A stretch of 64,000 nucleotides of DNA. It comes from Trichodelitschia bisporula. Taxonomy: Eukaryota. Below, piece after piece: positions 7,700 through 56,479 of the stretch. The translations under genes and the position numbers were made by a program. The stretch is from NCBI GenBank assembly GCA_010356995.1, contig ML996696.1, positions 126,364 through 190,363 on the forward strand, written 5' to 3'. The stretch's first letter is position 1. Each line of letters opens with the position of its first letter. The notes below the pieces were generated by a model. The model was given only the letters and a program-made list of their open reading frames with translations, had not been told where the DNA came from and searched no databases.

Positions 7700-8013
7700 A
7701 GGGGTATTGTTAGGGGGAAGATGGGTGGTGAGATTCATGAGATTCATACGCGGCCGAGAGCACTGGAGGAGATTGGGTCTGTCTTTGACGAGGATCGGAT
7801 AGGTGGCATGCGAGGCGTTCATGATGTTCTTCGTCGTTGTGTGGTGGATGCTTAATCAGCATATTGTACTGCCCCACTTCAGCCTTACCCTGTCGAATGC
7901 TTGATGCTTGGTTCTATGCACCCCGCAATGTTAAAAGCTTCCTCATCTTCGTCACCATCACCATCATCGCCGTCACAATCACCATCATCATCATCATCAT
8001 CGCCATCTTCGAC

Positions 8014-8262
8014 ATGGCGTTTTCCTTCCAAACCGATGGCCCTCCTGTCCCCTCTTCTGTCCGCAAAATCAAGCCATCGACAGGTGGGGAAGAGCTGCTC
8101 ACCTTCCTCGCCTCTACTGATCCACTCCCTCCCTTCCAACGTCGCGAATCCGAAGCCAAGGCCTCTCTCAGTCGTCTCCCTCCTCGCCTTCTTTACGAAA
8201 TACTGCGGTTCCTTAAACCTGCTTCACTTTCAGCCCTCGCCCTTACCCGTCGCGATATGTAA
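8014..8262 (+). pseudogene. F-box-like family member A, premature TAA
   Basis: LSRLPPRLLYEILRFLKPASLSALALTRRDM*ALYQPLL. The TAA falls where the paralog has CAA, and the family leader sequence is present upstream. Confidence 0.7.
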
Positions 8263-8894
8263 GCCCTTTACCAACCGTTACTTCGAGACATTAAGGTTGA
8301 ATGGCTTCGGGATCAGGAGAGAAATAAAGAGAGAGAATTTTGTTATGCCCCCATAGCTGCTGGTAAAACCAGGACATTTCGAACATCCAATGTGGGGTGG
8401 ATCCTTGCTAAATCACAGAGTTATGATATCGAGGCTCGGGCATCCGCCCCAAAAAGTTCTGAATATTGGTACTGAGACGCCTTTACAAAGAACGTGCAAA
8501 GGAACGTGCGGAGGAACGTGCGAAGCGTACCACTCTTGGGGAAGATGCTTGCTAAAGGAAGCCGTTCATGCCGTTGTTCCATACCGTACGCACGCCTGGG
8601 TCTGGCACCGATGACGTGCGAACAGTACCAGGAAAAAGTAACGGAGGACATCATATATCTATTCTGCAGAGGCTCTCGTCTCCAGTATCCTATCGGCCGG
8701 TTGGGCCGACGTCCAGGGCGGACGCCATACCGTCGCCAAATTACGACGCACTGCCCCCTTCAGCCTGACCCCGCCGAACATGATAAATGCTTGATTCCCA
8801 CCACCCCGCATCGCCTTCAGCCCCCCACATCTTCATCGCCGCTGTCACCACCACCACTAGCACCACCATCATCATCATCGTCATCACCTTCGAC

Positions 8895-9227
8895 ATGGCC
8901 GATTCCAAAACTGCCCCCGGTAGTCGCTCTCCGCTGAGCCCTCAGGTCGGCTCCACTTTCGAACTCAACAATGTTCCTCCTCCCCGTCAAGTCAGCACCT
9001 CTTTCGTCCTCAAAACCAAGCCGTCGACCGTAGGGGAGGCTCCGATTACCTACCTCGTCTTCACTGAACTCTCTCCCTTCCGACGCCGCGAATTCCAGGA
9101 TAGAGATCCCCTTAGTTCTCTTCCTCCTTTCCTTCTATTCGAAATCCTAAAGTTCCTAAAGTTCCTTACACCTGATTCACTTCCAGCCCTCGCCCGTACC
9201 TGTCGCGATATGCAAGCCCTTATCTAA
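8895..9227 (+). pseudogene. F-box-like family member B, premature TAA
   Basis: FVLKTKPST...TYL...LSSLPPFLLFEILKFL...SLPALARTCRDMQALI*P. The TAA replaces the conserved Gln of QP, and the downstream DNA is TA-rich. Confidence 0.7.
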
Positions 9228-10068
9228 CCAACAATAAGTAGTATAAGGCAGGCATGTGTTAATAGGTACGGAAGTTATGCGGGTACGATTTTTCGCTCTT
9301 ATGAAACGAAACTTCTCCTTCGCTATGAACTCTTTATTTATCCTTATAAGTCTACTAAAGGTAATTTACGTATATTTCCCCTCCTTTCTTATAATCAGCG
9401 CACACCATTTATATGTCAACTGCGCATACTTTCTACTTGCCCCCTATCTCCCTTCCCTACCCTACGATATGAAACTCAAGTTCGCTACGCAGAATGCTCT
9501 TAGAAAACTGCTGACTAGCCTATAGAAACGTTTTTGGCCAGTGTGGTCAATCCAACCGTTTTGAACGGAACGGAACCAGCCGTTTACTAGCAAATTGCGT
9601 GTATTCGTTTGCCGTGGGTTACACAGAACTGGTTGGATTGACCACTCTGGCTGTTGGGAAGCTACTAACTAATGGGTGCTATGAAATCTTTAGCCCAAGG
9701 TCTGAAAGCTAACCGATACATCCGCTCAATACCTGCTATATACATCCGCTCAATACCTGATGTAGACGCCTACCTACACGCCTACATGGAACCGGGGATT
9801 CCAGAAGGCCTCGCACGCCCACAGGAACCATTTCGCGCACGCCCGACAAAGCTGAGGTACTGCTGGGGAAACTTGGAAGAAAAAGATCTCTGACTTAATC
9901 GCGTGTCTCTGTTGGAGGAAGCTATCTACCATCTGGACCAGTTCAATTTAACCTGAATGCATGTGACTGGATGAAGCTGGAGGCTTGGAATGAGCGTGTT
10001 CTGCAGACGGAGGCACTTGAATGCCGCAGCATCGAGCATGAGAAGAAGTATTGATGTCCACGAATAGA

Positions 10069-19019: not shown

Positions 19020-22000
19020 CGACGCACCCGACCGCGCAATGTCCTGGTGTTGTTCCAGGCCTGGCCGCACACCCATCGGTCCCACTCCACACCCACCCGG
19101 CCCGAGACATCTCGTTCACGCTCTTCAGGCCTAGCTTCGTGCGCGGCGCATCCGCTGATATATCCGTATCCATCTGCCGTACATCCCTTACCCAAAGTCC
19201 AGTAATTCTTGACACGGCACACCACACGGCGCAATAAGCTGCGTCGCTGTTTGGCCCGGCCCGGGATATGTGTCCTTTGCGTCGGACGCCCGGCTCCGTG
19301 CCAGCGGAGAGGCGCACGCACCACAGCACAATATGTCCTCCCCCTCGGTGACCCGGCTGCATCCTCGAGCTCGATACACCGCCCGCCCGGCCCGGAACAT
19401 GCATCCTTTGGGTTGGCTGCCCGACTTCGTGCCAGCGGAGCGGCGCACGCGCCACCGCGCAATTCCTCGTCGTCCTCGGGGACCCGGCTGCAGCTCTCAA
19501 CTTCAAGCCACCCCGCCCGGGCCAGGACATGCACTCCTAGCCTCCCGGGTCCAGGATATGCAATGACATTCTGCGGTGCCCGACTTCGTGCTGGCGGTGT
19601 AGCTGTGCAGACCACACACCACCGCGCAATTTAGCCTTTAGGTCGGACATCCGGCTGTATGCCTCGAGCTCAATAAAGCCCCGCCCGACCCGAGCCATTT
19701 ATCATGACGGTGGTGTGCCTAACAACGTGCCAGCGCAGACACGCACACCCCACCGCGCAATTCGTCGTCGTCCTCCCGGGCCCGGCTGCGCCCCTCACCC
19801 GGATCGAACGCCCGCCCGGCCCGGGCATGTACTCCTAGCCTCCCGGTCCAGGAAATGCAATGACAGTCTGCGGTGCCCGACTTCGTGCCGGCGGTGTAGG
19901 TGTGCACACCACACACCACCGCGCAATCGTTCTTCGTCGTCGGTGTCCCGGCTGTACCCCTCACCCGGACTGGGCACCCGCTCGGCCCGAGCTATTTGTC
20001 ATGACAGTGGTGTGCCTAACAACGTGCCAGCGCAGACGCGCACACCCCACCGCGCAATTCCTCATCGTCCTCGCGGACCCGGCTTATCCCTCACTGGGAT
20101 CGAACACCCGCCCGGCCCGAGCCATGCGCCTTCACGGTGGCGTGCCTAACTGCATTTCGGCTCAGACGCGCACACCCCACCCAATGACGCTGGATGAACG
20201 GTGACCCGGCTAACGAGCCGTGCTCCTTTGACCTTAAGTCCAATACCTGCCCGGCCCGGGATATGTGTCCTTTGCGTCGGACGCCCGCCTTCGCCCCGGT
20301 GGAGCGGAAGTGCGCGCACAACGCACCACCGCGCAATCGTTCTTCGTCGTCGGTGTCCCGGCCGCACTCCTCACTCGGATCGAATACCAGCCCGGCCCGA
20401 GCAATGTTGAGTTTGCTTGGTGCGCCTAACTGCGTGCCAGCGCGGACGCGCACACTGCACCCAATGACGCTGGATGGACGGTGACCCGACCACCGGGCCG
20501 TGTTCCTTCAACCTGAAGTTCCACACCTGCTCAGCTCGCGATATGGAGCTTCAGCGTGACGTGCTTAGCTTCTTTCCGGCGGCGTAGATGCGCACAACCA
20601 CGCACCGCCGCGCAATTATCTTCATCGTCATCGGACCAGCCGTGTCCCTCGTATCAAGCACCAGCCCCAGCCCGAGCCATTCTTTCTCAGGGTGGGACGC
20701 CTGTCTTCGTGTCAGCGCGGACGCGCACACCCCACCCAATCACGCTTGAGTGTTCGTGGCCCGACCACCGGGCCGTATTTCTTCAACTTTGCGTTCAACA
20801 CCTCGTCGGCTGGGGACATGGAGCTTCAGCGCGACGTGCCCGGATTCATACAGTCGGTGTAGATGCGCACGCCACGCACCGCCGCGTAATGATTCCTCAT
20901 CGTCGGTGACCCGGCCGCATCCCCTCTGGCCCCGGCACACCACACGGCGCAATACACTCTCCTCCTCAGGGACCCGGCTGCATTCCTTGACTCCGATGCA
21001 CGCCCCCGCCCGGATGAAGACATACCCCCTCAGCGGAACGGACCCGGCTTCGTGCCAGCGCAGATGCACACACCCACCCAATGTTCCTGGAGAGTCTGTG
21101 GCCCGGCCACCGGGCCGTATTCCTTCTACCTCAAGTCTAACACCTCGTCGGCCGGGGACATGGAGCTTCAGAGTGACGTGCCCGGATTCGTACGGGCGTA
21201 GAGGCGCACACCAGGTAACGCCATGCAATCATTGCTCGTCGTCGCCGGCAGAGACAAATGATCCTCGGCAAGATTCCAAATTGAGGCTTAGTAGTTCGAT
21301 GGCTCTCTCTTCTAACCCGGCTGCATCGTCTCTTGACCCGGCACACCACACGGCGCAATACTAGCTCCTGCAGCTGGATCCGGCTGAATTCCTTGCCTCC
21401 GATGCACGCCCCCGCCCGGACGAAGACATAGTTCTGGGGCGTCACGGGCCCGGCTTCGTACCAGCGGCGTGAATGTGCGCGCACCACACCGCGCAATTCA
21501 TCTTGAGCTATGTTGACCCGGCAGCGTCCCTCGAGCTCAATATACCCCCACCTGGCCCGAGCCATGACCTGGTTGGTTGGTATGCCTGCCTTCGTCCCGG
21601 CGGTGCATCCGTGCCCCCAGCACACCCCACGGCGCAATGTTTAGATCCCGGTATGCCCCGGGCCGCACCGTGAACTCGAAGCCAAGACCCGCCCGGCCCG
21701 GGACATGCATGACCGCTTCCCGGCGCCCGACTTCGTCCCGGCAGCTTAGGTGCGCGCACCACACCCCACCGCGCAATACGTCGTCATCATCCTCGTCCCG
21801 GATCTGGGCGCGTCCTTCGACTTCGATCCACCGCCCGTCCAGCCCGGGTCATAGCTCTTGACGTAGGTACGCCTGAGTACTAGTAGCGTAGACGTGCACA
21901 CCCCCCACCCCAGAAATAGGTGCATGTGGGAAGGGGCCCGGCAAAGAAGTAGTCCAGACCGGACTTGGATTGGAAGACCCGGGTGTTGGCCCACCACACC

Positions 22001-23500
22001 CCAGCGCGCCATACCGTCTTGTTCTCCCAAGTCGGGCCCACATTCCCCGGCCTTAACCCAGCTCCGCCCGGCGTGGGGCATGGAACCTCGGGTTCGTAGG
22101 CCTGGCTTCGTGCCGGTGTAGAGGCGCACACCCCGACACACAGAGGATTATAATCTTCATCCCAGGCCCGGGCATAAAATCGGTCCAGCCCGGACCTGGG
22201 TAGGCGAGATCAGATTGTTCGCCCACCGTACCCCACCGCGCAATGAGTCGTTGTGGACGGCTACCGGGCCGTACCCCCGACCCGAAGCCAAGGCCCGCCC
22301 GGGCCGAGACATGGATCTTCCGGACCACGTGCCCGGCTTCATGCCGAACTATCCGGCCTCCGGCCCCGCAGAGAATTTTACGTCATCGTCGACGGCCGGG
22401 CATGGATAGCTCTGGAACCGATAGAGATATTCGAAGACCGAGGGCAGGCCGGGGAGTAATCATTATCCTCAACACCGCACCCAAGAAGAGCCGCTATTTC
22501 TTGCAGAAGTACACGCCCGGCCCGATACATCCATGTTCGGTAGTAGGCGCCGGAGCATATATGCTCGGTGATCAGCGCCGGAGCACCCATGTTTGGTGGT
22601 GGGCGCCAGAGTCTGCATCTCCGGTGGTTGGCGCCGGAGCATGTTGCTGTGCCATCTCAAACCTGGAAGTAGAAGACCCGAGGGTAGGTTGGGGAGTAAT
22701 CAAGATCCTCACCGCACCCGAAACGGGCGGCAATGGCGAGGAACAGGTGCCTGCCCGGCTCCGGACATAGATCTCCTGAAACGTGAGCCCGGCTTCATAC
22801 CGACGGTGTGGACATGCGCACCCAGCCCCGCGGAGAAGACGACGGAAGTGTGCTGGACCGGAGCATACATCGCCTCTGAGGGCAACCGGGAGATCGGAAA
22901 ACCTGAGTTTTGAACTGGGGAGCAATCAGCATTCTCACCCCACCAGAAACGGGTGGCAATGTTTCAGAAGAAGTGCACGCCCGGTCCGAGGCATGCATAT
23001 TCGGTAGCAGGCGCCGGAGCATGTTGCTGGGCCGTCTCCCACCTGGAAGAAGCGGAAGACCCGAGGATGGGCCAACCACACTCCACCGCGCAACAACTTA
23101 CGTCTGCGTCAAGAGGGGCCGCACTCCCCTCACCCGAAATCGACAACCGCCCGGCCAGGAACATCCGTCTTCGCGTATGCCTGCCTGACCACTGGTGTTG
23201 TAGACGCGCAGCCCCCAACACGCAGATATACTTGGGCTGTTTGGGAGGCTCGAGGACCAGCCTTGTCCAGTGTGAACCTGGATCGGAAGAGCGAGGGCAG
23301 GGCCGGTGAGCAATCAATCGCCAGGTCGGCCCGCCCGACAGGAACGCCAATACAGGAGGGCTATGTTATTCCCGGCCCTGCGCGAAGAATCTGCTTCCTG
23401 CATGCTGTACCCGGCTTCGTGCCGGTGGCACGGACGCGGACACACCGCCGCGTGGACCATAAAGCATGCCGGTGTTCCGCCAGAGCACCCATAGATATGC
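19020..23500. repeat. Degenerate GC-rich tandem repeat array with units of about 120-200 bp
   Basis: Recurring ccg(a/g)cttcgtgccagcg...gcgcacacc..caccgcgcaat...tcgtcgtc...acccggctgc...cgcccggcccg. About 18 occurrences of the (a/g)c(c/g)gcgcaat core counted by eye, and no sustained ORF. Confidence 0.85.
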
Positions 23501-26372
23501 TCCAACGACAACCGGAGAGGATCGGAAGACACAAGCCGGGCCGGAATTTGTTGGAATGAGTGTCCGCCTGTCCCGCGAACGTGTCTTCGGGCCCGAGTCC
23601 CGGGCCCCCAGATAGGACGACATAGCGAAATTCCGAAGGAGGAGGTATCTGGCCGGCGAGCCAGACGCCGCACTATGCGCGGGCACTTCGCGCGCCCCGA
23701 CCGCGGAGGCAGCATGTCGGAGAACGTTGCTAAGCAGTTCCATAATGCGGTGGTGATCCAGCCGGCCCGTTTTAGGTGTAGGGCATGATGTGCCGGTACG
23801 TTCCGCATAGCGTATGTAGGTTTCGACGCCACGGAGCACAAATTTGGTCAGGCAAAGCCCGAAAAGGGCGGTAATTTCTTGTTGGCCTTCAAGCCCGGGC
23901 CGAGCACCGAGGGCCCAATAGGCTAGTTGTCTTGGTGGCCGAGGCACTGCTTCGCAAAAGCGTAGCGACGAACTCCCTCCAGCTCAATCCAGGCTTTCCA
24001 ACCAGTCCCGGAGGTAATTGTTGTCCAGCGATTCGTTTCCATGGTGAACTTCATGTGCCTCCGCCTCTCACAGCGTAACGGCTGGTTCGACGCCGCGGAG
24101 CAAGGGGCTGATCGGCTGTGGCTCGAAAGGTACGGCAAGGACATCATGGGAGCACGCCCAGCCCAGCCCGGGCATGAAATGCCGTGTTGAGGGTCCGCCG
24201 CCGGCACGGCGGAACATGGTTGCACTGGTTCAGCCCCCGGCCCGGCAGAGCATGGATAGGCTACAGGCGCAACCGGGATGAATATCAAGACGTTGTTCAC
24301 CGCCTACATCGTATACGTCCTTCAGACCCCGCGGAGAATGACTCTTCAGCCTCTTCCCCCCGAAACAGGCGGAAATCCATTAGCGTCCTTGACGCCCTGT
24401 ATGAGTCCGCATTGTCGGCCTCCTTCACCCGCGGCGCGCGCATAGTTCTAGGCCAATTCGTGCGGAAGCCGGCCAAACGCGCGAATGTTTCGGGTAGTTT
24501 TCCGCCCGGAACCCAGTCCTGCGGTGCATACACGCGCCACCCGGCCCCGCAGAGAACCGGACCAGTCTGAGGAACCCCGGAGCGTGGATGGGCTCCAGTT
24601 CCAACCAGGGAGAATGGCTATTCTTCCACAGCCTCCCGAAACCGGGCGGGAATGGATATGTTGCTTTACCAGACGCGTACCCGGCTTCGAGTCCTGAGCT
24701 CGGTCAACCACGCACATAGGCGTATGGGCCGGAAAGCCCGGCATGCAATGCAACATCCGGTTCGGCGCGCGGACCGGGCGCAGCGGAGGATAATCTGGCA
24801 GCCCACCTTCCCCGGATCGAAAAGTGCGGAGCATCGCCTAAATACTGGAACATTCACGTATACCGGGATGCTGAGCCCGCTTTCGACCCCGCAGAGTCTA
24901 CTGTCTTCTCTTCATCCTCCCGAAACAAGAGGGACTTCTCTCAGGGACCTGCCCAGGGTATGAGCAAAGAGACTACATGGAACTTCACCGAAACCGCGCG
25001 CACCTGGCTATAAGTGTGGATCCTGACCAACTGGGCACATCCACAACTTTTTCGTCCTTCTAGGCATGCGCCCCGTGGTGTGGGCCGAGCGCAGCAGACG
25101 ATGAGTAGTTGGAGATGATGACCAGGATAGGACCATCCAAAGTGGTGGCGCGATACTGTGCACACCCCCGGACCGAGATGACTACCCAGCTTCCTGGGCC
25201 GGCGGGTGGAAAGGACGCCGCAGCGTGAGGATAGAGACGGGGAGCCGGTGCCGAAATCGGGTATGCTTTGTAAAAAACCGGGATGCAGCCGCTGCAGCAG
25301 CGCCGTGTTGGTAGCGATTATCGGTGTCCCGGATTGAGGACGGAGAGTTATGCGTCCGGATGGAGACGAGAAGCCGGCGTGGAGATAAAGACGCTTGCCA
25401 CCGCCCCCGGATATAGCTCGTGGACATTACACCGGGATGAAATTATCGGATCATGCGCCGGGATGGAGGACGAGGTCGCGGTAGTCCATGAGGTTGCACA
25501 CCCGGGACCGGACATGCTCCTGCAGAAACCACCCCCTGACAGCGGGGTACACCAGTCGTGGAGGTTCAGCGAACGTCCAATAGATTGAACGAGCCCAGAG
25601 CCGGGAACGCAAATGCCAGCCTTGCTCATGGTGCCCGATTTCGGTACCATATACCCGTTCATTACTGGAGGAATGAGCCTCCATCCGGTGAAACGCCAAC
25701 CAAAGCGGCGGAATACGTGGGCTAGTTGAAGGAGCCGGATTCGGACTCAGCACTCGCACTCTTGCGTCGCGGCCTCCGTGAGGGAGGACTATGCGAGCTG
25801 CTGGTGTAATGCCGCCGGTTGGAACTTCGAGCCGGACGGGTCATACTTATGATCCGGGGGGCCGTAGGCGCGGGCAATATCGGGTAATGCACAAGAATCC
25901 AGATTGGGTACGGCATTGGGGACCGAGATGACCATATGTTAGACCGCCGGACCGAATTAGGCGGATGGATGGCATTGCGGAGGAGGTGACCCGGACCACG
26001 CGCAAGATGATGGGGCATCCGGCCGCAACCCCCAAATTTGGCGAAAGGCCTGAGAACCGGAATAGCTGGAAATGGTGTTGCGCTGGAATGAAGAGGGCAT
26101 CTGCGCCGCAATTGGAGATCCCGTACCGCATGGGCTTGCGTGCAACATGCAGCCGGCGGAACATTATGCATTTCCACCCCGCGCCTGAGATCGCACCCGG
26201 CGCGGCGAGGCCGCGGAATCCATTGTTGTTTTGGTTGGCCCGGCAACGCGGAGGAATGGCTTGCGATGGCAGACGTCTGACGACGCGAAGCACCGCGCTG
26301 ATCCGATGTCCGAGCTGAGGAAGGCGAGAGAATCCGAAGGCGTGCTCCCCGGCCCGGCTAGCTAGGGCCTTT

Positions 26373-26501
26373 CTGGCCGGGTAGGAGAATTGGTCTAAGA
26401 GAACAGCCGGAATGGGCGTGGTGCCCTCTGTTGCTGGCCGGGTAGGAGAATTGGTCTAAGAGAACAGCCGGGATGGGCGTGGTGCCCTCTGTTGCTGGCC
26501 G
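26373..26501. repeat. 61-bp tandem duplication, near perfect
   Basis: ctggccgggtaggagaattggtctaagagaacagccgg(a/g)atgggcgtggtgccctctgttg occurs twice with one mismatch. Confidence 0.95.
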
Positions 26502-26539
26502 CGGCGCACAATTTTTGGTCGTCTGCGAGGTTCAGGCCG

Positions 26540-26870
26540 CCAATTGAACCTCAATGTTGCGAGACCGAGGCCGAGGAATCATCTGAAAGCAGTCCACGCC
26601 TGGCGCCAACGCCAACGAATACAGGGAGCCCATCATGGCCCAGACCGCACATCGAACCTCAATGTGGCGAGCCCGGGGCCGAGGAATCATTTGCCAGCAG
26701 GCTGTGCCTGGCACCAGCGCCGACGAATGCAATGGTGCCATCACGGCCCAGGCCGCGCATCAAATCTCAAGGTGGCGATCCCAAGGCCGAGAAATCATCT
26801 GGAAGCAGTCCACGCCTGACGCCAACGCCGACGAATACTCGGGCTTCATCATGGTCCAGGCCCTCTCGGA
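26540..26870. repeat. Tandem repeat of about 117 bp, 3 copies
   Basis: aacctcaatgt.gcga..ccg.ggccgaggaatcat.tg..agcag...gcctg.c.cca.cgcc.acgaat occurs three times. Confidence 0.85.
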
Positions 26871-28929
26871 ATCAACGGGAGGCGGCCAAACCGCCGCATG
26901 CGCCTTGCGGTAGAACAGGCCCACGGCGCAGGATATACGCGTTGTTTGGAAATCCAGACCCGAGACAATAGAAATCGGGGTCGGGATCCCGGAATGAACG
27001 CCGTTGGATCCCCGAAGCACGTTGACGTTGCGGTTTGCGGCGGGTGATGATCGGTGAGCGCGAGTCGGTTATGGACGGTACCGGCGGTATCGTTAGTAGC
27101 AGTCTGTGCCATACAGGACCGCCAGGCCAAACAGGCAAGTGCGGCGCATGGACCCCACAGGACAATTGAACCTCAGCCCAGTGCTCCAAGGGGCCAGAGT
27201 TGACGGGGCTGACAAATCGGGCATCCGGCGAGCGAAGCTCTCCACCCTGCCGTAAAGCCGCGGAGTGCCCACCACCGCAGACCGACGGAATAAACCTACT
27301 GGTTGGATTGCCCGGCCGACGTCGGACAGGGCCATGGTTTGATGGATAGGCCCCCGAGCAGAGATCAACCGGTATATCTTCAAGTCCGGTTACCCATCTC
27401 ACGGGCCAGATTCAATCGCGAGGACCAGTTGGAAAGCGGCACATGCCGAGGAATGGTTCCAAGCCGAGCAGCGATTCAGCCGTTTGGCCACCCGGGCAGC
27501 CGACGAAACATAAACTCGCCCGGCGAAATGCCAGACAACGGGCAGGCAGTTCCGCAGGCAGAATTCAGCTTTTCATTCCTGTAAGAGAGACCTTCATGAA
27601 GGTCCATATTCCAACGGAGGGCCTGAGAGGTGAGGTGGTTTCTACCCGGTGGCAGGATCCGCAGGCATTCGGCCCTCAGCAGTTCAGCGAGGGAGACAGC
27701 CGAGCTATGTTGTAAACTGGTTCCACGCCGAAGGCGGTATTAAACAGCAAGATTCTCCGCCAACAACCGCCAGGACCCGTCCACCGGGCGGCGCTGCAAA
27801 AGAGCCGGCGCGTGATGATATGGAAACGCGTTTTTGAAAGCGGGCAACTCCACATTAGTACCGAAGTTGATGAAGAAGAAAAATTCTTCTTGGTGGGCCT
27901 GACCCAGCCTTACTCCTCCACAGGGCACCGTGTCGTGATGCCTCACCGAATAAACCCGTCCTTGTGCAAGGTCGCGTGGAAAACTATGTCGCACAATCGT
28001 GTGGCTCTGCGACTCGCCAAAGCCGAGTGAGTCCATTCCGGCAACGGCGCGAGGAGCCAAATCATAGTCAGAGCCGTAGTGCCTGGCACAAACGCCTTCC
28101 CGGCAACTCGGACGATCCGGCGTGTGCCTCGCTCCAGGAGCGCAGGAAGCCAGAGAAGCATGGATGTTGATGATGCCACGCCTGACAGCTTGCGAGCAAG
28201 GCGAACTGGCTCCACGGTGTTACATCCAGGTACCGAGTGAGGGATGTTATCGATGCTCCGAGGATACCATGGTCAAAGTGAAGTGTAATCAAGACGGGAA
28301 CATCTAAGTCCACGCCAGAATGCGAGTTGATGATATTTGTCCAGATAGGCCTCGAGGGATGGACGAAGAGGTGTTCGAGTTCGTTCAGGTACCACACAGA
28401 ATCGCCTTCACTTTCGCATCAGAACGTCCGGGCAATCCGGGAGGCGGCTAGACTTGATATCCAGGCTGGCGCGGCCGCAGGGCCATAAGGATCTGATGGC
28501 AAAAACCCGACAACGCGGCCAAATTTGATGGCGCGGTAGACAACCCGGTACCGAAGTTAGTTTTTCTGAGCACACCGCAGAGCAGCACATCTGTTCATGC
28601 TAATGGGTGCCCGGAATAGAGCATGCGGCACACAATCCCGCACTGGAGGCAGCCCAGCACAATTTTGAGCTCCCGTTCGCACCCGAGATACGCGGCGGAA
28701 CACAAGACCGGAATGGCATCGTTGTACTTTATACCCGACAGCCGCACTCCGCGACGGCCGCACACGCCGCGCACAACATCGTAAAGCCGGATGCGGACCC
28801 GGACTCCGGAGCTCGGATGGAATCTCCCATCACACGGCCCTGTGGGGAAGGCATGAGAGCCCCCGCCGCATGGCGGAGTGATTAAGGACGCCAGGCAGCA
28901 TTGCGGAGAGCCTTAGGGCGCCCGGCAAC

Positions 28930-30230
28930 TTAGATTGTCTTCGAGAAGCGCCGGGATCAACACCCCGAGGCTCGGGTACGCTGCTGAAGCTGAAGATGCA
29001 AGCCGAGAGCCGCATGGCATACCGTTGTGTCCTTCCGGGCCGACACATTCAAATCGCCCGAAAGCCGCAGCGCAGCGAGAACACGGCAATAGAAGACGAG
29101 GACGTAGACCCAGGATCTGGAATGCGGGGATTGTCCCCCGCACGGAATGTTTTTCCAGGGATGCGTGCCAAAATTCTGTCGGTCGTTGGGGGACCGAGCT
29201 AGACTGCGGTGAGGCCTTGGGCCCTGAATTGAGTCCGTCGTCGAGCACCCGGCGCATGGTGTGGGTGGAAGCCGTGCCAGGCAAAATAGGTTGACTTTTA
29301 AGGAGAGCCGGGATCAACGCCCCAAGGCTCAGGTGTGTGTTGGTGATGTCGGAAGGCAAGCCGAGAGGCGCATCATATGCATGTAAGCCCCCCCGGGCCG
29401 ACACATTCAAATCGCCGAGAGCAGCAACGCCACGAGAGCACGGCAATGGAGGGTGAGGACGTGGGTCCAGGATCTGGAGTGCGGGGATCGTTCCCCACAC
29501 GGAATGATCCTTCTCCGTCTTGAGCCAAAATGCCTTTCGTCGTTGGTGAACCGGACTGGGCCCGCAGTGAGGCCTTGGGCCTTAAACTGAGTCCATCGTG
29601 TCCAGTCGAGTGTGAAGTGCGATGAGCATCTGTTACAGCTGGCTCGTGAAAATCTTCGAGAGCCGCAACGCAGCGCGAGCGCGACAATACCAGATAGTGT
29701 AGGTCGCGCCAGGTTCCGGAGTGTGGGGATCGCTTCCCGCACGGAATGGTTCCTCTCCGTCTAGGGCCAGAATTCTTGCGGTCGTCGGGGAACCGGACTG
29801 GGACGTGATGAGGTTGGGACTGGAAGGGGTCATGCAGGAGTCTGCGAAGCCGCCGCGCGGCCGCATCACGGACAATGGCTGGCTCTTCTGTGATGGCCGC
29901 ATCATGGACAACGGCACGGCCCCCCGCGATAGTCGGAGCATCGACGCCGGCACGTTCCATTGTGATGCCCGCCTCATGGTTGGATTAAGAGAAGCGAAAT
30001 GGGTTGGGCGGACCCACATTCTCAGGCGCGCGCGCAACTTGCTGCTGCGCATGCATTCTGTTGCTGAGCACATAGAACTCGAATTGACCAGCATATCGGA
30101 CGCCTCCACCAGCTGAGAAAGGACTTGCTGGAGGACGTACCCGACCGCAGGTGAGGCCTTGGGCCTGAATGGAGTCTGTCGTGTCTAATCGAGTGCGAAG
30201 TGCGATGAGCATCTGATGCAGAAGGCTTTC
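28930..30230. repeat. Degenerate direct repeats of about 360 bp (2-3 copies plus a fragment)
   Basis: gccgggatcaac.ccc.aggctc.ggt...gggccgacacattcaaatcgcc...ccaggatctgga.tgcggggat...gtgaggccttgggcc at about 28950, 29307 and partially at 29710 and 30150. Confidence 0.8.
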
Positions 30231-30411
30231 GAGCTGGTCGTCACATTTCGGGGGTCGGGTACCGCGACGGCGCGGAGAGATCGAGGTGTTTGGTGCGGAG
30301 CCAGAAAAAGGCCCCGTTCATGAGATATGCCGGCCATAGGCTGAGTACCGTGACGATGTACCCAGGGGCGACACGGGCGGGGGCCCGAGTAGGATGCGGC
30401 ATGGGTGCGGT

Positions 30412-31330
30412 CTGGAGTGGTTAGCTCAAATACACGTGGGCGGGATGGGGACTCACGCTGGAAGCACGGCAGCAGAAATGGTTGGCGCAGATCATGAGCC
30501 AGGCATTGGGATGGCAGGATGGCGGTCCGGGATTAGAGGGAAGAACTGAAGTGCCGGAAGACGTCAGCGTGGGTCGTGCAGATTGGAAGAGCCCGAGTCA
30601 GATGTGGCGTGGGTATGGGCTGGAGGGGTTAGCCTGAATGTGCATGGAAAGGACGGAAACTCACGCTAGAAGCACAGCAGCAGAAATGGTTGGTGCAGAT
30701 CATAAGCCAGGCAATCGGCTTGCTCGATGTCGTTCCGGGATACAGGGAAGCGTTGAAATGGCGGACGACGTCGGCGTGGGCCGTGCAGATTAGAAGAGCT
30801 CAAGTTAGATCCGGTGGCAGTGAGGTCTGGAGTTGTTAGCCTGAGTGTGCGTAGACGGGATGGGGACTCACGCCAGGAGGACGGCAACAGAAATAAGGCA
30901 TGGCTGAGCCATTCGTAAATGAATGTTTGGCGCATCATGCGATCTAGCATTAGGCTGGAATTTGAAACCGGGTAATTGAGCGGAGGGGGCCAGGGGCCCC
31001 GAAAAGCATAAGGTATGTGGTAGTGGTCTGAAATGGTCAGCTAAAGCGTGCGTAGAATGGATGGGACTCACGCCGGAGGGACGGCAGCAGAAATAGGCAG
31101 TTTCTGTTTAAAACCAGGCAATACAACCTTGAGGTCCTCGTCCAAGATGGAAAGACGTGATGAACGGGTGATAATAGCGGCGTAGGGCGTGCAGATGGGA
31201 AGAGCCCGAGTTGGAGGTGGTGTTGGTGAGGTCTGGAGTGGTTAGCTTGAGGAGATGGAAGGGGTGGGAGCTCACGCCGGGAGGACGGCGGCAGAAATGA
31301 TGAGATATAGGTGAAAACCAGGGAATCTGA
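30412..31330 (-). repeat. Five tandem exon+intron cassettes of about 205 bp
   Basis: Minus-strand introns 31233-31275, 31028-31071, 30827-30871, 30620-30664 and 30412-30456. Each reads GC|GTGAG(T/C)...GCT(A/G)AC....CAG and is preceded by atttctg(c/t)tgccgt. Confidence 0.85.
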
Positions 31331-31377
31331 TGGTGGTGTACCTGTCCACGATGGAAGGATTTGATGAAGGGGTGGAT

Positions 31378-31461
31378 GATGGCGATGGACGATGGCGATG
31401 GATGATGGCGATGGATGATGGCGATGGATGATGGCGATGGATGATGGGGACGATGGCGATG
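31378..31461. repeat. 13-bp minisatellite (GATGGCGATGGAT), about 6 copies
   Basis: Directly visible in the sequence. Confidence 0.9.
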
Positions 31462-31981
31462 AACAACGAACTGGACCGCGCAGATCAGAACATACGAGAA
31501 TCAAAGCTTGCTGACGGCCAAATCGAACACCGAAATGGTAATGATGCATAGCGCAAAGGCCGAAAGACAGAACGAGCGGACTGAAAAGCAGCACTTGCTC
31601 CACAGCAAGAAGGCTTGAAAGATGAAAAGAGAAGAAGAGAGGAAAGGAGTGAAGCTGAAGTGAGGACTGCTGAGTGACTGATGTTCAACAGAGGACGGCC
31701 AGAGGGGGGTATATATACCCTCTGTCGCAGCCGGTCATCAACAACCGCCTCAGGCCGAAGTCAACACCCCCTCTACGTAGTTGGAAGTCATCCTCGCCGG
31801 GAAGCAGAAAGCAGAGACCCGTGCGAGGAAGGCTGATGTCGTTCCAACAGGTAACCAGGTCCCTCAACTGGCACAGAGCGAATCGAACTGTCAGCCATCG
31901 ACCCAGATGTAGAAATCGGGATGACTATCGGACACACGGCTGGGAAGTGGCCAGCTCGCGGCCCTCCGTTTGGTAGTGAAG

Positions 31982-32160
31982 ATCACTGGAGGTCGAAGGC
32001 GCCTATCATGTGCTCGGGGTAGGCTCGCTGTACGCAGTCTGGCAGTGGACATCACTGGGAGTCGACGGCCATCATGTTCTCGGGGTAGGCTTGCTGTACG
32101 CAGTCTGGCAGTGAGTAACACTGGAGGTTGAAGGCGCGCATCATGTCCTCGAGGCAAGCC
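31982..32160. repeat. Tandem repeat of about 67 bp, about 2.5 copies
   Basis: cactggaggt.gaaggcgc..atcatgt.ctcggggtaggct.gctgtacgcagtctggcagtg is repeated. Confidence 0.8.
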
Positions 32161-32446
32161 CATCACAACTGAGCGCGCTGGCCCGGTAGGGCAGTCGACC
32201 CCACTCGAACGCGCAGCCGCGTCAGCAGCCTCGTGGCAGCCAGATCAGAACCATCGCCCAGTCGCCACCCAGCTTAGGGGGAAGCAAGGCTGAAAAATCC
32301 GCTTCCCGATCCGAGACCAACTCACACAGTTCGTCACAAGTCGCAAGCCAGGCCCTGAGAAGTACAATTCTAGTCGAACTATTAGGTAGTGTCTACAGAC
32401 CTTTCGCCATCCGGTCTATCATCCTGCACAGTCCAGTCCAGTCCCA

Positions 32447-33272
32447 TCAGAGCTTCCCCATCAGCAGATTGCGAATCATCTCACGGGCCGTGATCCGAAT
32501 GGTGTGATAGAGCGAACCGACATCCAACGTCGAGAAGAACGCATCCGCGAACCCGAACGGCAACATGCCGGGGATGAAACCTGTTCCGTTAGCCTCTCTT
32601 CCCCAAAACAACCACAAAACCAAAGCCCAAACTCACCCTGCGCGAGCTCAATCGCCCAGCACCCCTCATGCATCTTATACTGCTTAACATCGCCCCGGCG
32701 GAGATGATGCACCGCCCCCTTCGGATACCTCTCCATCACCAAGCTGTTCGCCGTAGCCGCCCACTGCTCCCCCTCAATAATATGAAAGTAATCATCCGCA
32801 GTATGGCGCCCGCTATGTCCTTCCGTCCCCAGCGGCGTGCCAAACACAATCAGATACTCCGTAATACTCGCATGAAGCAAGTACATGCTGCCCATCGCGC
32901 CGCCCGCATTATTAAACACCCACTCGCCCTCATACGGCGATACCTGCGCACTGGAATTGTACGCCAGCGCCTCGGGCGTGCCGGCGTTGGGATGGTAGGG
33001 AAAGGGATCGATGTTGATGCTTTTTCCGTGGGTCTCACGCAGGCTCGTCGCGATGTGGTGCACCACGCCAGCCGTCGAATTGGGATACAACTCCATCGCC
33101 TCAAGGACCAGCTTGTGCATAGTCGGCGGATCGAAGATGTAGAACCGTGGCTACTTCGCGCGTTAGTATTATTCTTTCCAGGCAAAGGGCGACGCACCAT
33201 CAGCGGAGCAGAGAGGGAAATGAAGGCCACGAGCGCGGCAAAGGCCAGCGCGGCGCGTGAGAGGAAGGCCAT
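32447..33272 (-). CDS. ERG2: C-8 sterol isomerase; introns 33151-33197 and 32581-32636
   Basis: EWVFNNAGGAMGSMYLLHASITEYLIVFGTPLGTEGHSGRHTADDYF and spliced ELAQGFIPGMLPFGFAD. Confidence 0.96.
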
Positions 33273-34067
33273 TGCGACGCGAGTGGGATGGACAGAAGGC
33301 TGCCCGGTGGAGAATGGGAAGGTGGTGTACGTTTGCCAGACTGTGTTACAGTGATGGCAGTTGCTATCTCGTTAGTATTTATCGCGCCTGGTCGCGCAGG
33401 CCATCCCTGGCGTTAGACCCTTGGACCCTCTTGGCGCGGCGCTGCATGCAGGGAATTCAAGCCTGCGGTTGGACGGCAGGATCGGGCACGGATTCGGAGG
33501 CGTCGTTCAATGCCGTACCATTTTTTGGTGGCTGGCCGGTGATGCATCCGGAGCCGAGAGGCACGTGTAGTCGCAATGCTGGCGCGTTCAGGCTAGGGGT
33601 TGGAAGAAGAGCAGCTTCTCTAAGGATTGTGGACAGTTAAGTTTGGTGTCAGCACACTTTTCCGGTGAGTTACTCGTAACTTCACTTCCCAACGATTTGC
33701 TCCGCGTTGCAGTATCGAAGTCGCATGGGGGTCCGGTCCTCGCGGCGGGGAATAGCATCCACTGCGAGCCCTGCCTTGCAAAAGCATGACCAAGAGAGGA
33801 GCATTCCGGCGAGGAACATGCGTTTGGTCCGATGCCAGTTTTAACAAGACATAGAGCATCATTCCCGGCGGTATCGGAGCCCAGTATGTCCACATCGCCA
33901 TCCGTAAATTGGATCCCTACCCAAGGTCGGCAGGCCGTCGATTGATACAATGTCACCAGCACGTTTCACCATCACGGCAAGACAAGTTCAGGCGGAAACA
34001 CCTTTATTTGTACACAATAACATTCATGGTATCATCACCATCATTTCTATTCATCTCCCATCAGCAT

Positions 34068-34391
34068 CTAGTGCTTGTCAAGCCCGAGCGCGTTCTTGGT
34101 CTTGTCGAGGATGCTCTCGCCAGTGCCGCCGTGCACATGCTCGTCCTTGGAGCGGCCCATCTTGTCGCTGACGGACTGCGACGTGCTCTTGGAGTCGTCA
34201 GGCTGCAGGCCGCGGGCAACGCGGTCGCCGGCGCCAGTGACGGTCTCGCCCATCTTGTCGATGGTCGACCTGGACATTGTCAGCTACCACTGTGATGAAA
34301 TAGTGCTCAGAAGCGGAACTCACTTGGTGGAGTCGGGCTGGAGGCTCTCCTTGGCCTTGTCACCGAAATCCTTGCGGCCGAGATCAGACAT
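34068..34391 (-). CDS. HSP12: Heat shock protein 9/12; intron 34270-34323
   Basis: MSDLGRKDFGDKAKESLQPDSTKSTIDKMGETVTGAGDRVARGLQPDDSKSTSQ. Confidence 0.93.
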
Positions 34392-35435
34392 GTTGATTGA
34401 GGTTGGTTGTAAAAGGGTTGAAAGTGTGAGTGTTTGGCTTGTAGGTTGTAGTGAGGAAGCTGAGTTGAGTTGCGGTTGATGGTCGTTTGAACAGCGCTGC
34501 TCTCTGTCCCTTATATCCCCCTCCCGAGACCCCTACGTCATCGGTCAGACCCGCTCCTTCCCAAACTCCCATTACCCCTCAGCCCCTCAGCCCCTCAGCC
34601 AAAGTGCATGTGCAAGCGGGCCCCCGCATCACTGCCTTGGTCAACGACTGCCCAACCACTTACGCCAGCCTCGTTCGGGCCTCCAGTGCAGCGCCTGACC
34701 TGAAGGAACCAACGAGCGATCAAGGGGTTACGAGCATGCCAACGCCGCTTCTAGCCTCATGCACTGCGTGCGGTACGTAGATTGGACCCATCTCCAGAAC
34801 GAGCTCAGCCGGGCTATTGAGCCTGGATCATGGGGCCTGTGGCCTGTAGCCATATAACGTCATCGGCATGTGGGGTTTGCCATGTCGGAGCAATGGCATT
34901 GCGAGCACCAATGGCATGGGAAGGCACGATCTGCAGGTACCTGGCCTGCTGGTTTAAAGACGCGAAAAAGCTTGCGTCATGGGCCATTCGCCGCTTTGTT
35001 TGGCGTTTACGTTGCGGCAATTTGGGGTGCAACTTGGAGCTAGGGAACTGGCCATGCAGAATGCACAATGGGTGTTTGCGGAGCCCTCCCCGTTTGCGTG
35101 CAGTGGCAGCTCGTTGTTACCAAGGTTCGGTGGTACGCTCATGGACAAGCATCGCGGGGCGCGAATCCCAATTCGACGGGCCCTGACATCATCCCCGCGC
35201 CCTTGCGGTAAGGTTATACCAACCGCGCTAGTCTGCATCAGGAAGCCAATTACATCATAGCTTCCACTCTTACGTGCGGGGTGACTACAGCCGCAAGCGG
35301 GGGCTGTCCAACTCCAATCTCCAAACATCTCACAGCACTAGTCTCACACTCCGTTGTCCAATAGACACCGCTCCGAATTCATCCGCCCACGTCTCCCCCC
35401 CACATCCCGGCTTCCTGTCATCCCAGGACCCAGAC

Positions 35436-35847
35436 ATGGCTACCACCGTTCCCCGTTTCAAGCTCGTCTTCTTCACACCAGTGCCTGCGGCAACGCCATG
35501 CAAGGCTGCCGTTTTCGCTACGGGGGCGGGACGTATCGGGTCGTACTATGAATGTGCGTTTACAACCCAGGGTGTTGGGCAGTTCCGTCCCGGCGACGTT
35601 ACCAATCCGGCTACTGGGAAAGTCAGGGTTACGGAGACTGTACCGGTGCCGGAACTCAAGATAGAGATGGTTTGTTATGAGGACGAGGGCGTCAGGATGG
35701 CGATTGCCGCGCTGAAGGAGTGAGTACTGTGCTGTATTTCGGCTTCATTGTTGTTCGAGGTAAGGGGACTTTAGTGGGACTGATCAGGGCCGAACTCATC
35801 CAGATGAGGAGCCGGCCTATGACGTCTACCGTATGGAGGACTTCTAG
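35436..35847 (+). CDS. Small Nif3/YbgI PII-like-domain protein; 3' splice site ambiguous, possibly a pseudogene
   Basis: FKLVFFTP...CKAAVFATGAGRIGSYYECAFTTQGVGQFRPG...EMVC, donor GTGAGT at 35720, and terminal HPDEEPAYDVYRMEDF*. Confidence 0.8.
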
Positions 35848-36421
35848 TGCTGGGATGGATCCAGTGGGGAGGACGATGTGGGAATGCGTGATATTGATGA
35901 CTTGAACACTCGTGGTATGAAGCATGATATGGAGTTCCGGTGGGGTTTAGCCATTAGATGGGGATAACGATGAACGAACAAACCATCCGACTCAACCACA
36001 GCTGCTCTGCCTCCGTTCCGCTGTGGTTAAGTTGAATGTCTTATTCCACCCTAGCACGGTTCGAATGGCCGAGCCCTCTAGTCAAAAACCGTCGAGATGA
36101 GATATCTCGTCTAGAAAATGTCGAAATGAGCAGCCGCTCTCCTTTCATCCTCGCATGTGCGAAGGGACGAAGGAATCGTCATCTCGCTGAAGCTGAGAAG
36201 ATTTTGACGGCAACCTATTGATGTGGCAACGCATGCAGTTTCATCCTTCCCGAGCCGTGACGGTATGCTACTAATTCTCTCATCAAAAATGAGTTGGGAC
36301 ATTCCCTTTCATCCTGCTGGCCTCAAGACGAATCGAGCCGTCACCCAATTGATGTCGAGATGAGTGCAAACTTCCACCTGAACTCGAATCAAAGCAGGTC
36401 ATTGACTGCTCGAACATACCA

Positions 36422-53834: not shown

Positions 53835-55157
53835 CTACATGTTGTGATAGTAAATGCCTATGAGGTAACGTATTCCCTCACGTGTCATACTTATATGAGG
53901 TTCAATATCTTTCGCTCCTAAATGCACTCGATACTGCTCCTCAGCCTCCTGTGCCGCAGCCATAAGCCTCGGCGGGTCCTCTATCATTCCCATAAGTACC
54001 GTCCGCACCTCGGCCACATCCGGCAGCGAAATCGGGGAAACTAGGGGTAACATTTCGTTCCCCGAAATAGCGTTTACAAGTACAACGAAGCGCTCTATGT
54101 TTCCCAGGATCTTCGCATTGCAAGTTCTGATCTCTTCGACCTCATGGACGCCTAAAAAGCGCTTTTTGTCCACCAGACCCTCAGGGTGGGAGGCCCCAAT
54201 CGCATCCTCAAAGGCCGCGGTGAACGCGAGCACGCGACCCACAAGTATGCGATTCGCAAGTTCAATGCGCATTTTGTACTCCTCGGCCGCAGAGAGGCAG
54301 ACTTTGAGCTAGGCACTGAAGTACTCGTTTGAGTGGACTATTAGTAGTGCTCGACTTAGTAGTTCGTTGGCTCTTTTTACAAAGATTTCGCTGGAAGTGG
54401 AGCCGCCGAGCTTGTGCTCTGCTGGTCGAGAGAATTCGATTTTGAGTTCGACGTCTTCTTCGTTTTTGACAACGTCGCTGGGCTTGCGCTTTGTGGGTCG
54501 CGGAAATTCGTCTCCGAGGTCCTCTCCACTTTCGACAACGTCGCTGACATCTCCCTTAACATCGCTCTCAGCGTTGTCCCGAATGTGGCTCCTAGATTCC
54601 GGCAAACGAAAACTCTTACGCAGCTGTCCGTAATACGAGATGTCCAGAACTAAGTGGTGTATATCAGAAAAGAAAAAAAACTTCAACTTCGTAGAGGCAG
54701 CCACGGAGTTTATAATCGACATACCTGAATGAGACCCCAGCCGTGCCACATATGAAGAGTTGATAAAATTGAGGTATAAAGACCTCGAAAGGAATTTCAT
54801 TTCCACCATATGAAATAATTGCCCAGCCCTTGCAATATTCCATTCGTATGATCGAGCCATAAGGATTTTTGATCACTGATTGTTCGCTGGAGAGAGACGT
54901 TCATAGCATAGTAGGTACGGGCGAGGGCCAGAAGTGATGCAGGTGGTAGGGACATCATGATTTCGAAAAAGGTCAGGAGGAAGACTGCTGAGAGGGTCCT
55001 CGGGTTGGTATTGGATGCCTCGAAAGGGAGGGAGTGGTTTGGCGGAGGAGAGGTAGGTAAGTGGGGCATCCCCTGCGAACGACTCTTTGGTGCTGAGGAT
55101 ATAAGAGGCAGTGATATCACGGTTACGACGGTGAGTGGTTTCAGAAGAGGGTGTCAT
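53835..55157 (-). pseudogene. F-box-like family member E, long and disrupted by frameshifts and one in-frame TAG (54309-54311)
   Basis: YILSTK...APLTYLSSAKPLPPF...PLSSLPPDLF, then after a frameshift LPPASLLALARTYYAMN. ORFs 54309-54860 and 53835-54272 are in the same frame. Confidence 0.7.
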
Positions 55158-55990
55158 GTCGAAATGATGATAATTGTGATGGTGATTGCGGTGGTAGTAG
55201 TGACGGGAGAGCTGATAATGACGTGGAGTAGAAGGAATCAAGCATTTCTTCAGAAGTCGAGGCAGTACCGGGTATCTAGAAGTAAGCCGATGGAGGGATA
55301 AGGCTGAGCGGGGCTGTGTTGATGATAGCGGTGAAAGGTTTAAAGGCAGCCTGTGAAACTCATGGCCGCCGCACCCAGCCGCCTTTGCTGACCGCGGCGG
55401 CCATGACTTTCTCGGATTCCCCGGGCCACTAGTATATGGATGCGGGGAAAGGAACTCTTACCGTAGTCCCTTGGCTACCAACAACCTTTTCCTCCTCAAC
55501 ATCAGCTCCTCGCTTTCACTCCCAATGCACCTGCTCCTCAATCCCCTGAACCGCACAAGCCGCGACGGCTCCTCAAGGTTCCTATTACCACCGTGTGCGC
55601 CTCGGCCACGTCCCGCAGTAAAAAGCTCGCGAAGGCTCGCGAAGGTCGAGGCGTCTTGGTACTCATACGTCTTCACACTCCTTCATATTCCTTCACACGC
55701 GCCCGGCTTCCCCTCAACAACTCTTACCCAGGCTAACGTTGTGCAGAGCCCTCGCGAGCTCCCTCCGCTGCACGGCCTCATTTACGCGTGGGAACGCTTG
55801 ATGGCGATATTCTACGAGCGGCAGACGAAGCAGCACAAATGCACACGATGGAGTACACTTGTACTTAGCTCTTCCGGGGCAAACCTAATACAACCCACGC
55901 TTGTTAGAGCCAAGAACAAAGAAGCTTTGGGTAAGTGAATCAAGCGCTACCTCAGAGATCTTTAACGGCACGCATATTCGAACTGCACGT

Positions 55991-56161
55991 GGGGGCGTAG
56001 TGCTCTTTACGTCAGTACTCGATAGTGATGGGGAAATGATCGTACTCGCCTGGTGCTTTATTTGCCCGTAGCCGGCCTCAATTTTGGCTAGCTACGGGCA
56101 AATAAAGCATCAGGAAAGTACGGTCATTTCCCCATCACCGTCCAAAGAGTAGTACGCCCCC
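55991..56161 (+). repeat. Long inverted repeat / hairpin (core arms of about 53 bp, 56025-56138)
   Basis: gtgatggggaaatgatcgtactcgcctggtgctttatttgcccgtagccggcc / ggctagctacgggcaaataaagcatcaggaaagtacggtcatttccccatcac, plus an outer gggggcgta..gctcttt / aaagagt..tacgccccc stem. Confidence 0.92.
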
Positions 56162-56479
56162 CCGGGCTGCTCGGAGATGCGTGCCGTCAATGACTTGTAA
56201 GGCAGCGCTTGATGTAATTACCCAGAGCTTGTTCTCAACTCCATCAGAAGCAGCTTCTATTGGGGTTGCCCTACGAGAGCTGAGCACAAGTATACATTGT
56301 CCTTTGCCGATAATAGCTTTGTATCGGCTAGCTAGTCGTCTGCATGGTTCATTTTGAACCGCGCTGGACGCTCGCAACAGCGCACAGAAATTTGATAAAC
56401 GTATTAGGAATAGTTTCAGCATCTAGACTTTGGGCGTTTTTGGTGATATCTAATCTATTCGATTCCTTTGCCGAAACTG

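Follow-up and report, generated by a model that had tools for sequence, protein, structure and literature searches.

Human long intergenic non-coding RNAs (lincRNAs) are among the closest described systems for the locus reported here, and one account places their constraint in splice-related motifs (PMC4245815). We analyzed a 64,000-nt stretch of the dothideomycete Trichodelitschia bisporula (assembly GCA_010356995.1, contig ML996696.1, positions 126,364 to 190,363; hereafter the window, whose positions are used throughout), in which five tandem exon–intron cassettes lie just downstream of ERG2. The array and its introns are read on the minus strand. The cassettes resemble the human lincRNAs in being spliced and apparently non-coding, in the weak constraint on their exons, and in the apparent selection at splice sites and exon ends. 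They differ from them in that the evidence is drawn from five paralogous copies within one fungal gene rather than from orthologues, in having introns of 43–45 nt that are probably recognized by intron definition, and in a conserved exon end that is one specific 25-nt sequence where the human RNAs have diffuse enhancer hexamers.

For enhancer-associated lincRNAs, a second study reports a contribution of splicing to cis-regulation (PMC7035876). The present locus would share with them promoter-near splicing as the function and an exon sequence that is dispensable or poorly conserved; here, however, ERG2 lies upstream on the same strand and any cis effect is only putative. We know of no enhancer architecture of that kind in fungal genomes. 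At the mouse Blustr locus, it is reportedly the splicing of a long non-coding RNA (lncRNA) rather than its sequence that affects the nearby gene. NORAD, Xist, and FIRRE are long repeat-unit lncRNAs with exonic repeats that conserve a site for protein binding. The cassette RNA resembles them in having tandem units that each keep a short motif, with the potential for multivalent protein binding, but here every unit comes with an intron, and conservation is highest in the splice signals.

Tandem exon duplication in coding genes preserves the frame and often yields mutually exclusive exons. Unequal duplication of an exon with its flanking intron is common to both cases, but the present array keeps no reading frame, and the one full contig includes every exon. 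The introner-like elements of Dothideomycetes are near-identical introns that are dispersed, without exons, into unrelated genes; they share with the array the occurrence of several similar short introns in a dothideomycete genome, whereas here the whole exon–intron unit was locally duplicated and the copies are ~62–79% alike. We rejected such elements as an explanation, since within the window the copies are confined to the local array and the intron interiors are 62% alike. Our literature search found no description of tandem exon–intron cassettes in a fungal non-coding RNA, nor of a non-coding counterpart to coding-style duplication, and no paper naming T. bisporula concerned its RNAs, as judged by title or the start of the abstract.

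An RNA is made from the array, its five introns are precisely removed, their splice signals are conserved to excess, and coding signals are absent. We put the probability at roughly 0.7 that the array belongs to a separate minus-strand RNA polymerase II gene just downstream of ERG2, whose product is a low-abundance, efficiently spliced lncRNA selected for its splicing. An initial annotation made from the sequence had proposed a spliced non-coding RNA with selection acting on splicing rather than on protein, and the RNA joints, the unit alignment, and the coding tests all agree with that proposal. If correct, the pattern marks splicing as the object of selection, in a fungal genome that is compact and whose introns are very short. 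The locus would further offer an unusually clean natural experiment on a standing question, namely whether it is sequence, transcription, or splicing that makes a long non-coding RNA matter. The five 5-nt donors would then give a direct handle on the contribution of splicing to the fate of the RNA and to the expression of ERG2, a gene of the sterol pathway.

Five introns are removed from the RNA at the predicted borders

The array comprises five tandem units of ~205 nt spanning positions 30379–31384, which are 71–78% alike across their better-aligned parts (Table 1). The five introns of 43–45 nt with GTGAG donors, GCT(A/G)AC branch points, and CAG acceptors that the initial annotation had placed on the minus strand are present in the sequence, and its internal exons of 161, 156, 162, and 163 nt, including the one closed in three frames (30665–30826), were likewise reproduced. 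Homology between the units stops ~33 nt into exon 6, at ~30379, and in unit 1 a 13-nt microsatellite (5.8 copies, 31373–31447) stands in place of the exon body. A strict short-intron pattern gave five matches in the 1309-nt stretch holding the introns, compared with a mean of 0.015 and a maximum of 1 in 1000 dinucleotide shuffles; over both strands of the whole window it gave 17 matches. Judged by their sequences, the five introns are paralogues of one unit and not independent events, and no copy of the unit was found outside the array within the window. Their type is that of the verified neighboring introns (47–56 nt, GTGAGT or GTGCGT, RCTRAC, YAG).

As RNA data, we used the contigs of two runs (X1 and X2) from a single sample and study, aligned with positions 26000–36000, where depth ranges from ~4 to 88,000. 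Both runs skip the ERG2 introns at 32579–32634 and 33151–33197 exactly, matching the exon structure of the annotated ERG2 protein, and we took the runs as RNA because these verified introns are skipped in them. A 1180-nt contig of X1 (depth 11.7) runs through 30019–30411, 30457–30619, 30665–30826, 30872–31027, 31072–31232, and 31276–31420. All five introns are removed from it at exactly the predicted borders (5/5 joints), so that exon is joined to exon precisely at each intron of the initial annotation. In X2, four of these joints recur in a 580-nt contig (depth 5.72), that of intron 1 being unseen. Every exon is included in the one full contig. The skipped segments have the ends CT..AC on the plus strand, which correspond to GT..AG on the minus strand, and the RNA therefore comes from the minus strand.

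Multiplying the contig depth by the exonic fraction of each bin reproduces the bin depths over the array (expected 8.55, 10.1, and 8.65; observed 8.52, 10.1, and 8.62), and by this arithmetic unspliced forms contribute little. The end of the X1 contig at 31420 falls inside the 13-nt microsatellite and is likely an assembly break. In this one sample, an RNA of more than 200 nt is made and canonical spliceosomal introns are removed from it, both as expected of an lncRNA.

Upstream of the cassettes and in the correct orientation lie a palindromic TATA-like box and a CT-rich leader, both described in the initial annotation and both present as sequence. The ERG2 RNA contig ends at 31935, which puts the box 215 nt further downstream. 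The box may be a promoter, which would give the cassette RNA a promoter of its own. RNA contigs cannot reveal the starts or ends of transcripts. The spliced X1 contig reaches 31420, and the bin depth implies, by arithmetic, further low cover to ~31677. Over 31678–31934, subtraction of the ERG2 contig from the bin depth leaves nearly nothing, which would fit a separate start near the TATA-like box, although a stretch that contigs leave uncovered does not count as evidence.

Below the array, exon 6 probably continues without splicing for 4 kb or more, to ~25–26 kb, through a 3601-nt contig for which we infer both continuity and strand. This contig overlaps the spliced contig by 24 nt (30019–30042), with no contig bridging both, and a further X2 contig extends from 26402 to ~1 kb below 26000. 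The minus strand is 54–63% pyrimidine over 25–32 kb, the same span as the RNA contigs. Unbroken contig cover from the array down to 26442, and on towards ~25000, is also what a multi-intron 5′ untranslated leader of a coding gene further downstream on the minus strand would give. That the cassettes are such a leader is extremely unlikely in our view, given that there is no minus-strand coding-like frame of at least 80 aa between 32479 and Gpi1 at 16235, that frames of at least 110 aa across ~18.5–32.4 kb match no Pfam family, and that the leader would contain dozens of upstream AUGs.

The break between the two contigs, at ~30020–30040, coincides with stretches shared with deeper contigs. Two segments of exon 6 (30004–30067 and 30081–30149, 64–69 nt) are matched at 90% or more by far deeper X1 contigs (depths 754 and 462), which on either side go on for 255 nt with sequence unlike that of the locus. 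Exon 6 thus shares short pieces with abundant RNAs from elsewhere; those at 30004–30149 may represent a fragment captured from a gene, a site of pairing, or CAG-rich sequence of near-low complexity. At its lower end (26442), the 3601-nt contig meets a 61-nt unit repeated 2.1 times at 98% identity (26373–26501), an array far younger than the others, and the end there is probably an assembly break. Degenerate arrays in this downstream part, at 28920–30227 (spacing ~240–580 nt), 26533–26862, and 26373–26501, show no coding signature. The ~357-nt array of exon 6 was considered as a coding repeat, with its 119-codon spacing and an open 222-aa frame, and was rejected: changes between its two copies number 22, 25, and 26 by codon position (p = 0.84), indels occur, and the codon score of the frame is no more than 0.12.

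Table 1. Positions of the cassette array and associated features in the 64-kb window
Feature	Position	Length or copies	Strand	Description
TATA-like box GGGTATATATACCC	31720-31707		minus	palindromic candidate core promoter, read directly; CT-rich stretch next to it
Exon 1	31276..31700		minus	5′ end unmapped; CT-rich leader, first AUG at 31549, 13-nt microsatellite
Intron 1	31275-31233	43 nt	minus	GTGAGC...GCTAAC...CAG; joint 31232/31276 in X1, unseen in X2
Exon 2	31072..31232	161 nt	minus	carries the stop (31108) of the 132-aa first-AUG frame
Intron 2	31071-31028	44 nt	minus	GTGAGT...GCTGAC...CAG; joint 31027/31072 in X1 and X2
Exon 3	30872..31027	156 nt	minus	body largely unlike the other exons save the last ~35 nt
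Intron 3	30871-30827	45 nt	minus	GTGAGT...GCTAAC...CAG; joint 30826/30872 in X1 and X2
Exon 4	30665..30826	162 nt	minus	stops in all three frames
Intron 4	30664-30620	45 nt	minus	GTGAGT...GCTAAC...CAG; joint 30619/30665 in X1 and X2
Exon 5	30457..30619	163 nt	minus	stops in all three frames
Intron 5	30456-30412	45 nt	minus	GTGAGT...GCTAAC...CAG; joint 30411/30457 in X1 and X2
Exon 6, first part	30019..30411		minus	contiguous in the spliced X1 contig
Unspliced RNA contig	26442..30042	3601 nt	probably minus	gap-free; depth 22.6 in X1, 8.7 in X2
Exon-end motif, consensus ATTTCTGCTGCCGTCCTCC	30461-30479, 30669-30687, 30876-30894, 31076-31094, 31280-31298	19 nt, five copies	minus	

Coding tests and conservation across the units

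Of the four internal exons, 4 and 5 are closed by stops in every frame, whereas 2 and 3 each keep two of three frames open, and the lengths of the four (161/156/162/163) preserve no common frame. We trained a codon score on six known coding frames of the window, which themselves score 0.21–0.42. On this scale, every ATG frame of at least 25 aa in the spliced model reached at most 0.18, and no stop-to-stop frame of at least 80 aa between 21.2 kb and 32.48 kb scored above 0.12. Twelve frames of at least 110 aa within 28916–31684 matched 0 Pfam families. Three-base periodicity of substitutions was absent in all six exon pairs (p = 0.07–0.98).

The open exon-2 peptide (53 aa) was searched with HMMER against 1.84 billion representatives, which returned one protein (E = 3.2e-5). 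We rejected it as a homologue: it is a 1009-aa repeat protein matched in 11 places at 28–33% identity over 21–38 residues, and the score is additive. Among the Pfam matches of that protein, 0 stretches pass alone, 3/4 lie below the curated cut-offs, and the families are mutually unrelated. For the exon-1 peptide (91 aa), 260 candidates of 50–160 aa gave one weak match (E = 2.5e-4, 56% identity over 49% of the query), and none of the annotated T. bisporula proteins of 50–160 aa matches it. This match was rejected as well; composition or repeats explain both. Neither of the two protein searches returned a coding relative or the intact paralogue that the initial annotation had named as evidence of simple pseudogenization. 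The small frames that begin MIC(T/A)NHFCC in units 4 and 5 also failed as a conserved peptide: units 1 and 2 lack the AUG, and in unit 3 it is displaced. By stops, codon scores, Pfam, homologue searches, and periodicity, the RNA appears to have no protein-coding capacity.

The frame that starts at the first AUG (31549 to 31108; 132 aa, rich in His, Ser, and Pro) bears on a different explanation, namely that the RNA is the mRNA of a small orphan protein whose introns 2–5 lie in the 3′ untranslated region (UTR) and make it a target of junction-dependent nonsense-mediated decay (NMD), keeping the message unstable or regulated. The frame spans intron 1 and stops 36 nt short of junction 2, beyond which lie three further junctions, so that the predicted geometry, a stop at 31108 followed by four junctions, fits an NMD target. 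In Neurospora crassa the exon junction complex takes part in NMD, according to a review that cites Zhang and Sachs 2015 on 3′ UTR introns (PMC6173133). The contig depth in X1 is also low for the cassette RNA beside ERG2 (11.7 vs 2561), contig depth being a poor measure of expression. Even so, we regard this explanation, though not without weight, as unlikely. The frame runs through the 13-nt microsatellite, which makes up much of it in shifting phase, and its codon log-likelihood of −0.28 lies in the out-of-frame range, compared with 0.21–0.42 for coding frames. Its exon-1 part has the single weak match described above and no counterpart among the annotated proteins of the species. A small-protein mRNA would moreover leave the likeness of intron 1 and of the exon-end motif in all five units unexplained.

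Conservation was assessed by aligning the five cores, each made up of 80 nt of exon, the intron, and 80 nt of the next exon, and by comparing counts of invariant columns with one-sided Fisher tests. Signal columns were those of GTGAG, GCTRAC, and CAG (14 columns). All five units with a homologous region keep the signals, and no unit was dropped from the count. Invariant columns made up 13/14 of the splice signals, compared with 8/31 of the other intron columns (p = 3e-5) and 33/194 of all non-signal columns (p = 8e-9). Averaged over unit pairs, identity was 0.97 in the splice signals, 0.62 in the rest of the intron, 0.79 in the last 25 nt of the exon, 0.39 in the earlier exon (−80 to −26), 0.52 in the first 55 nt of the next exon, and 0.36 at its positions 56–80. 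Splice signals are far better kept than other intron positions or exon bodies, in line with the initial annotation, and the exon bodies (0.36–0.52) fall below even the non-signal intron positions (0.62).

Besides the splice signals, the conserved core takes in the last ~25 nt of each exon. This region contains the motif ATTTCTGCTGCCGTCCTCC, which at up to three mismatches has five matches in the window, all inside the units (shuffle mean 0.01), and an invariant heptamer, ATTTCTG, at −23 to −17 from the donor in 5/5 units without indels. We infer purifying selection on the donor, branch point, and acceptor of each intron and on the final ~25 nt of each exon. That the signals and exon ends were kept while the exon bodies drifted argues that what is selected would be the act or the mark of splicing at five junctions lying close together, and not a peptide or a folded RNA.

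The same figures bear on the alternative offered by the initial annotation, a recently dead repeat-protein gene. Such a gene would have carried a repeat of ~54 residues per exon and would still be transcribed and spliced since its death was too recent for the signals to decay. The exon lengths do cluster near 162 nt, or 54 codons (161, 156, 162, and 163), two frames stay open in both exon 2 and exon 3, and the changes between exons 4 and 5 number 14, 5, and 15 by codon position, with fewer at one of them (p = 0.07, with no correction for the six tests). We nevertheless consider a decayed gene improbable. Exon bodies are less alike than the intron interior (0.36–0.52 against 0.62), whereas a gene long under coding constraint and only recently dead should show the reverse. 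The exon-3 body bears essentially no relation to those of the other exons, codon-position counts are flat in five of the six exon pairs, no Pfam match was found, and the sole HMMER match, that of the exon-2 peptide, is the additive artefact described above.

A further explanation is neutral by-product transcription, in which a repeat that by chance held one good short intron was amplified in an open region downstream of a strong gene and its signals were kept by chance or by gene conversion. The array is one among several degenerate tandem arrays at the locus, and the window holds many non-coding ones of 68–83% identity, so that arrays are nothing special in themselves. The RNA also seems to be expressed at a low level, and no structure or homologue was found, which would likewise suit this explanation. 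Chance retention of at least 13/14 signal columns is, however, very improbable given the 8/31 of the neutral proxy (Fisher p = 3e-5). Gene conversion would homogenize the non-signal intron positions too, yet these are 62% identical, and the distance between heptamer and donor is fixed and indel-free in all five units. Taking these points together, we judge neutral transcription to be quite improbable. Repeat-induced point mutation was considered as the source of the divergence and found no support: transitions and transversions number 453:470 over all unit pairs and 17:17 to 22:36 in exon pairs, with no strong transition excess, and GC is not depressed.

Possible role of the cassette RNA

Searches for known RNA families gave 0 Rfam matches at E <= 1 over 26000–35000 on both strands, and no conserved C/D-box pair was seen by eye in the exon alignment. 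Introns of 43–45 nt are too short to hold a small nucleolar RNA, and with the Rfam result this told against the suggestion of the initial annotation that the locus hosts small RNAs. A conserved structure of the core was tried and rejected (consensus fold −7.76 kcal/mol, covariation term −0.28, compensatory change in 1/16 pairs); all of the strongly predicted pairs include bases of the splice signals, and these bases do not vary in any case. Global structure failed similarly: the 1420-nt spliced model, which is 63% C+U, has z = −0.40 relative to 40 shuffles. The single metagenome match to a 28-nt degenerate pattern of exon end plus donor showed no tandem repeat or flanking similarity and was set aside as chance.

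Any function of the cassette RNA is proposed here from its sequence. If the locus is an lncRNA gene selected for splicing, as we favor, its 5′ part would have arisen by tandem duplication of a ~205-nt exon–intron module, now in five copies, and after the duplication the exon bodies would have become nearly random through drift. Splicing at the five promoter-proximal introns, together with the junction complexes that it leaves behind, would license or boost the accumulation and export of an RNA that is long, pyrimidine-rich, repeat-built, and unspliced beyond the array. This RNA might then act locally near ERG2, or as a multivalent platform for protein binding. One study reports that exon junction complexes sit ~24 nt upstream of junctions (10.1101/677666), and the heptamer ATTTCTG at −23 to −17 falls in that region. 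Components of the complex reportedly govern the export of spliced lncRNAs (PMC13631367).

A narrower version would make the five cassettes a dedicated loading module for splicing and junction complexes, with a tight cluster of five junction marks as the selected product. We advance this tentatively and think it more doubtful than probable by a good measure. The marks in that case may license the export or stability of a ~6–7-kb pyrimidine-rich, repeat-built RNA, titrate junction or NMD factors, or set the chromatin state downstream of ERG2. The locus would then be a natural fungal example of a non-coding RNA that functions by being spliced, one that comes with five internal replicates.

Several points weigh against the reading of the locus as an lncRNA gene selected for splicing. 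All of the RNA evidence comes from one sample and study and amounts to one independent observation; the runs are labelled 'RNA? (a guess)', their status as RNA following from the ERG2 introns, and the contigs carry no strand (splice sites aside), no ends, and no reliable level. Selection is deduced from five paralogous units in one genome, and the signal columns were defined by the same pattern that found the introns. The RNA has neither a conserved nor an unusual structure, which leaves a structure-based function without support. As regards coding, the 132-aa frame begins at the first AUG and could still be translated, and the comparison of exons 4 and 5 has its weak dip at one codon position.

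Neighboring genes and local repeats

ERG2 lies directly upstream of the array on the minus strand (exons 33272–33198, 33150–32635, and 32578–32450). Its central exon is 100% identical to a protein that carries the name of T. bisporula at NCBI, and the next-best matches are at most 83% identical. The window also encodes Gpi1, a RecQ helicase, SGT1, and a pyridoxal phosphate (PLP)-dependent decarboxylase. The ERG2 RNA contig continues ~510 nt past the stop codon (31935–32446) and ~880 nt upstream of the start, to 34149, and the apparent 3′ UTR holds a tandem array of three 66–69-nt units (31954–32154). Beside ERG2, RNA depth is extreme over 34016–34909, with bins up to 88,372 in X1 and 57,823 in X2. 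A spliced 54-nt intron at 34270–34323 on the minus strand (GTGAGT...GCTGAC...CAG) lies in a very highly expressed small gene next to ERG2.

From ~21200 to 32480, the window contains ~11 kb without a coding-like frame or Pfam match, of which RNA contigs cover at least 25–31.4 kb. Such a stretch is, in our judgment, long for a compact fungal genome, and the present locus suggests that gene-free, repeat-rich stretches of dothideomycete genomes can hide real processed transcription units. Old local repeat arrays, tandem or dispersed, were found at 7800–9230, 19254–21850, 26370–26862, 28920–30227, 31954–32154, and 54900–59000. Nearly all of the old arrays of the window are 67–84% identical, and unrelated arrays show similar divergence.

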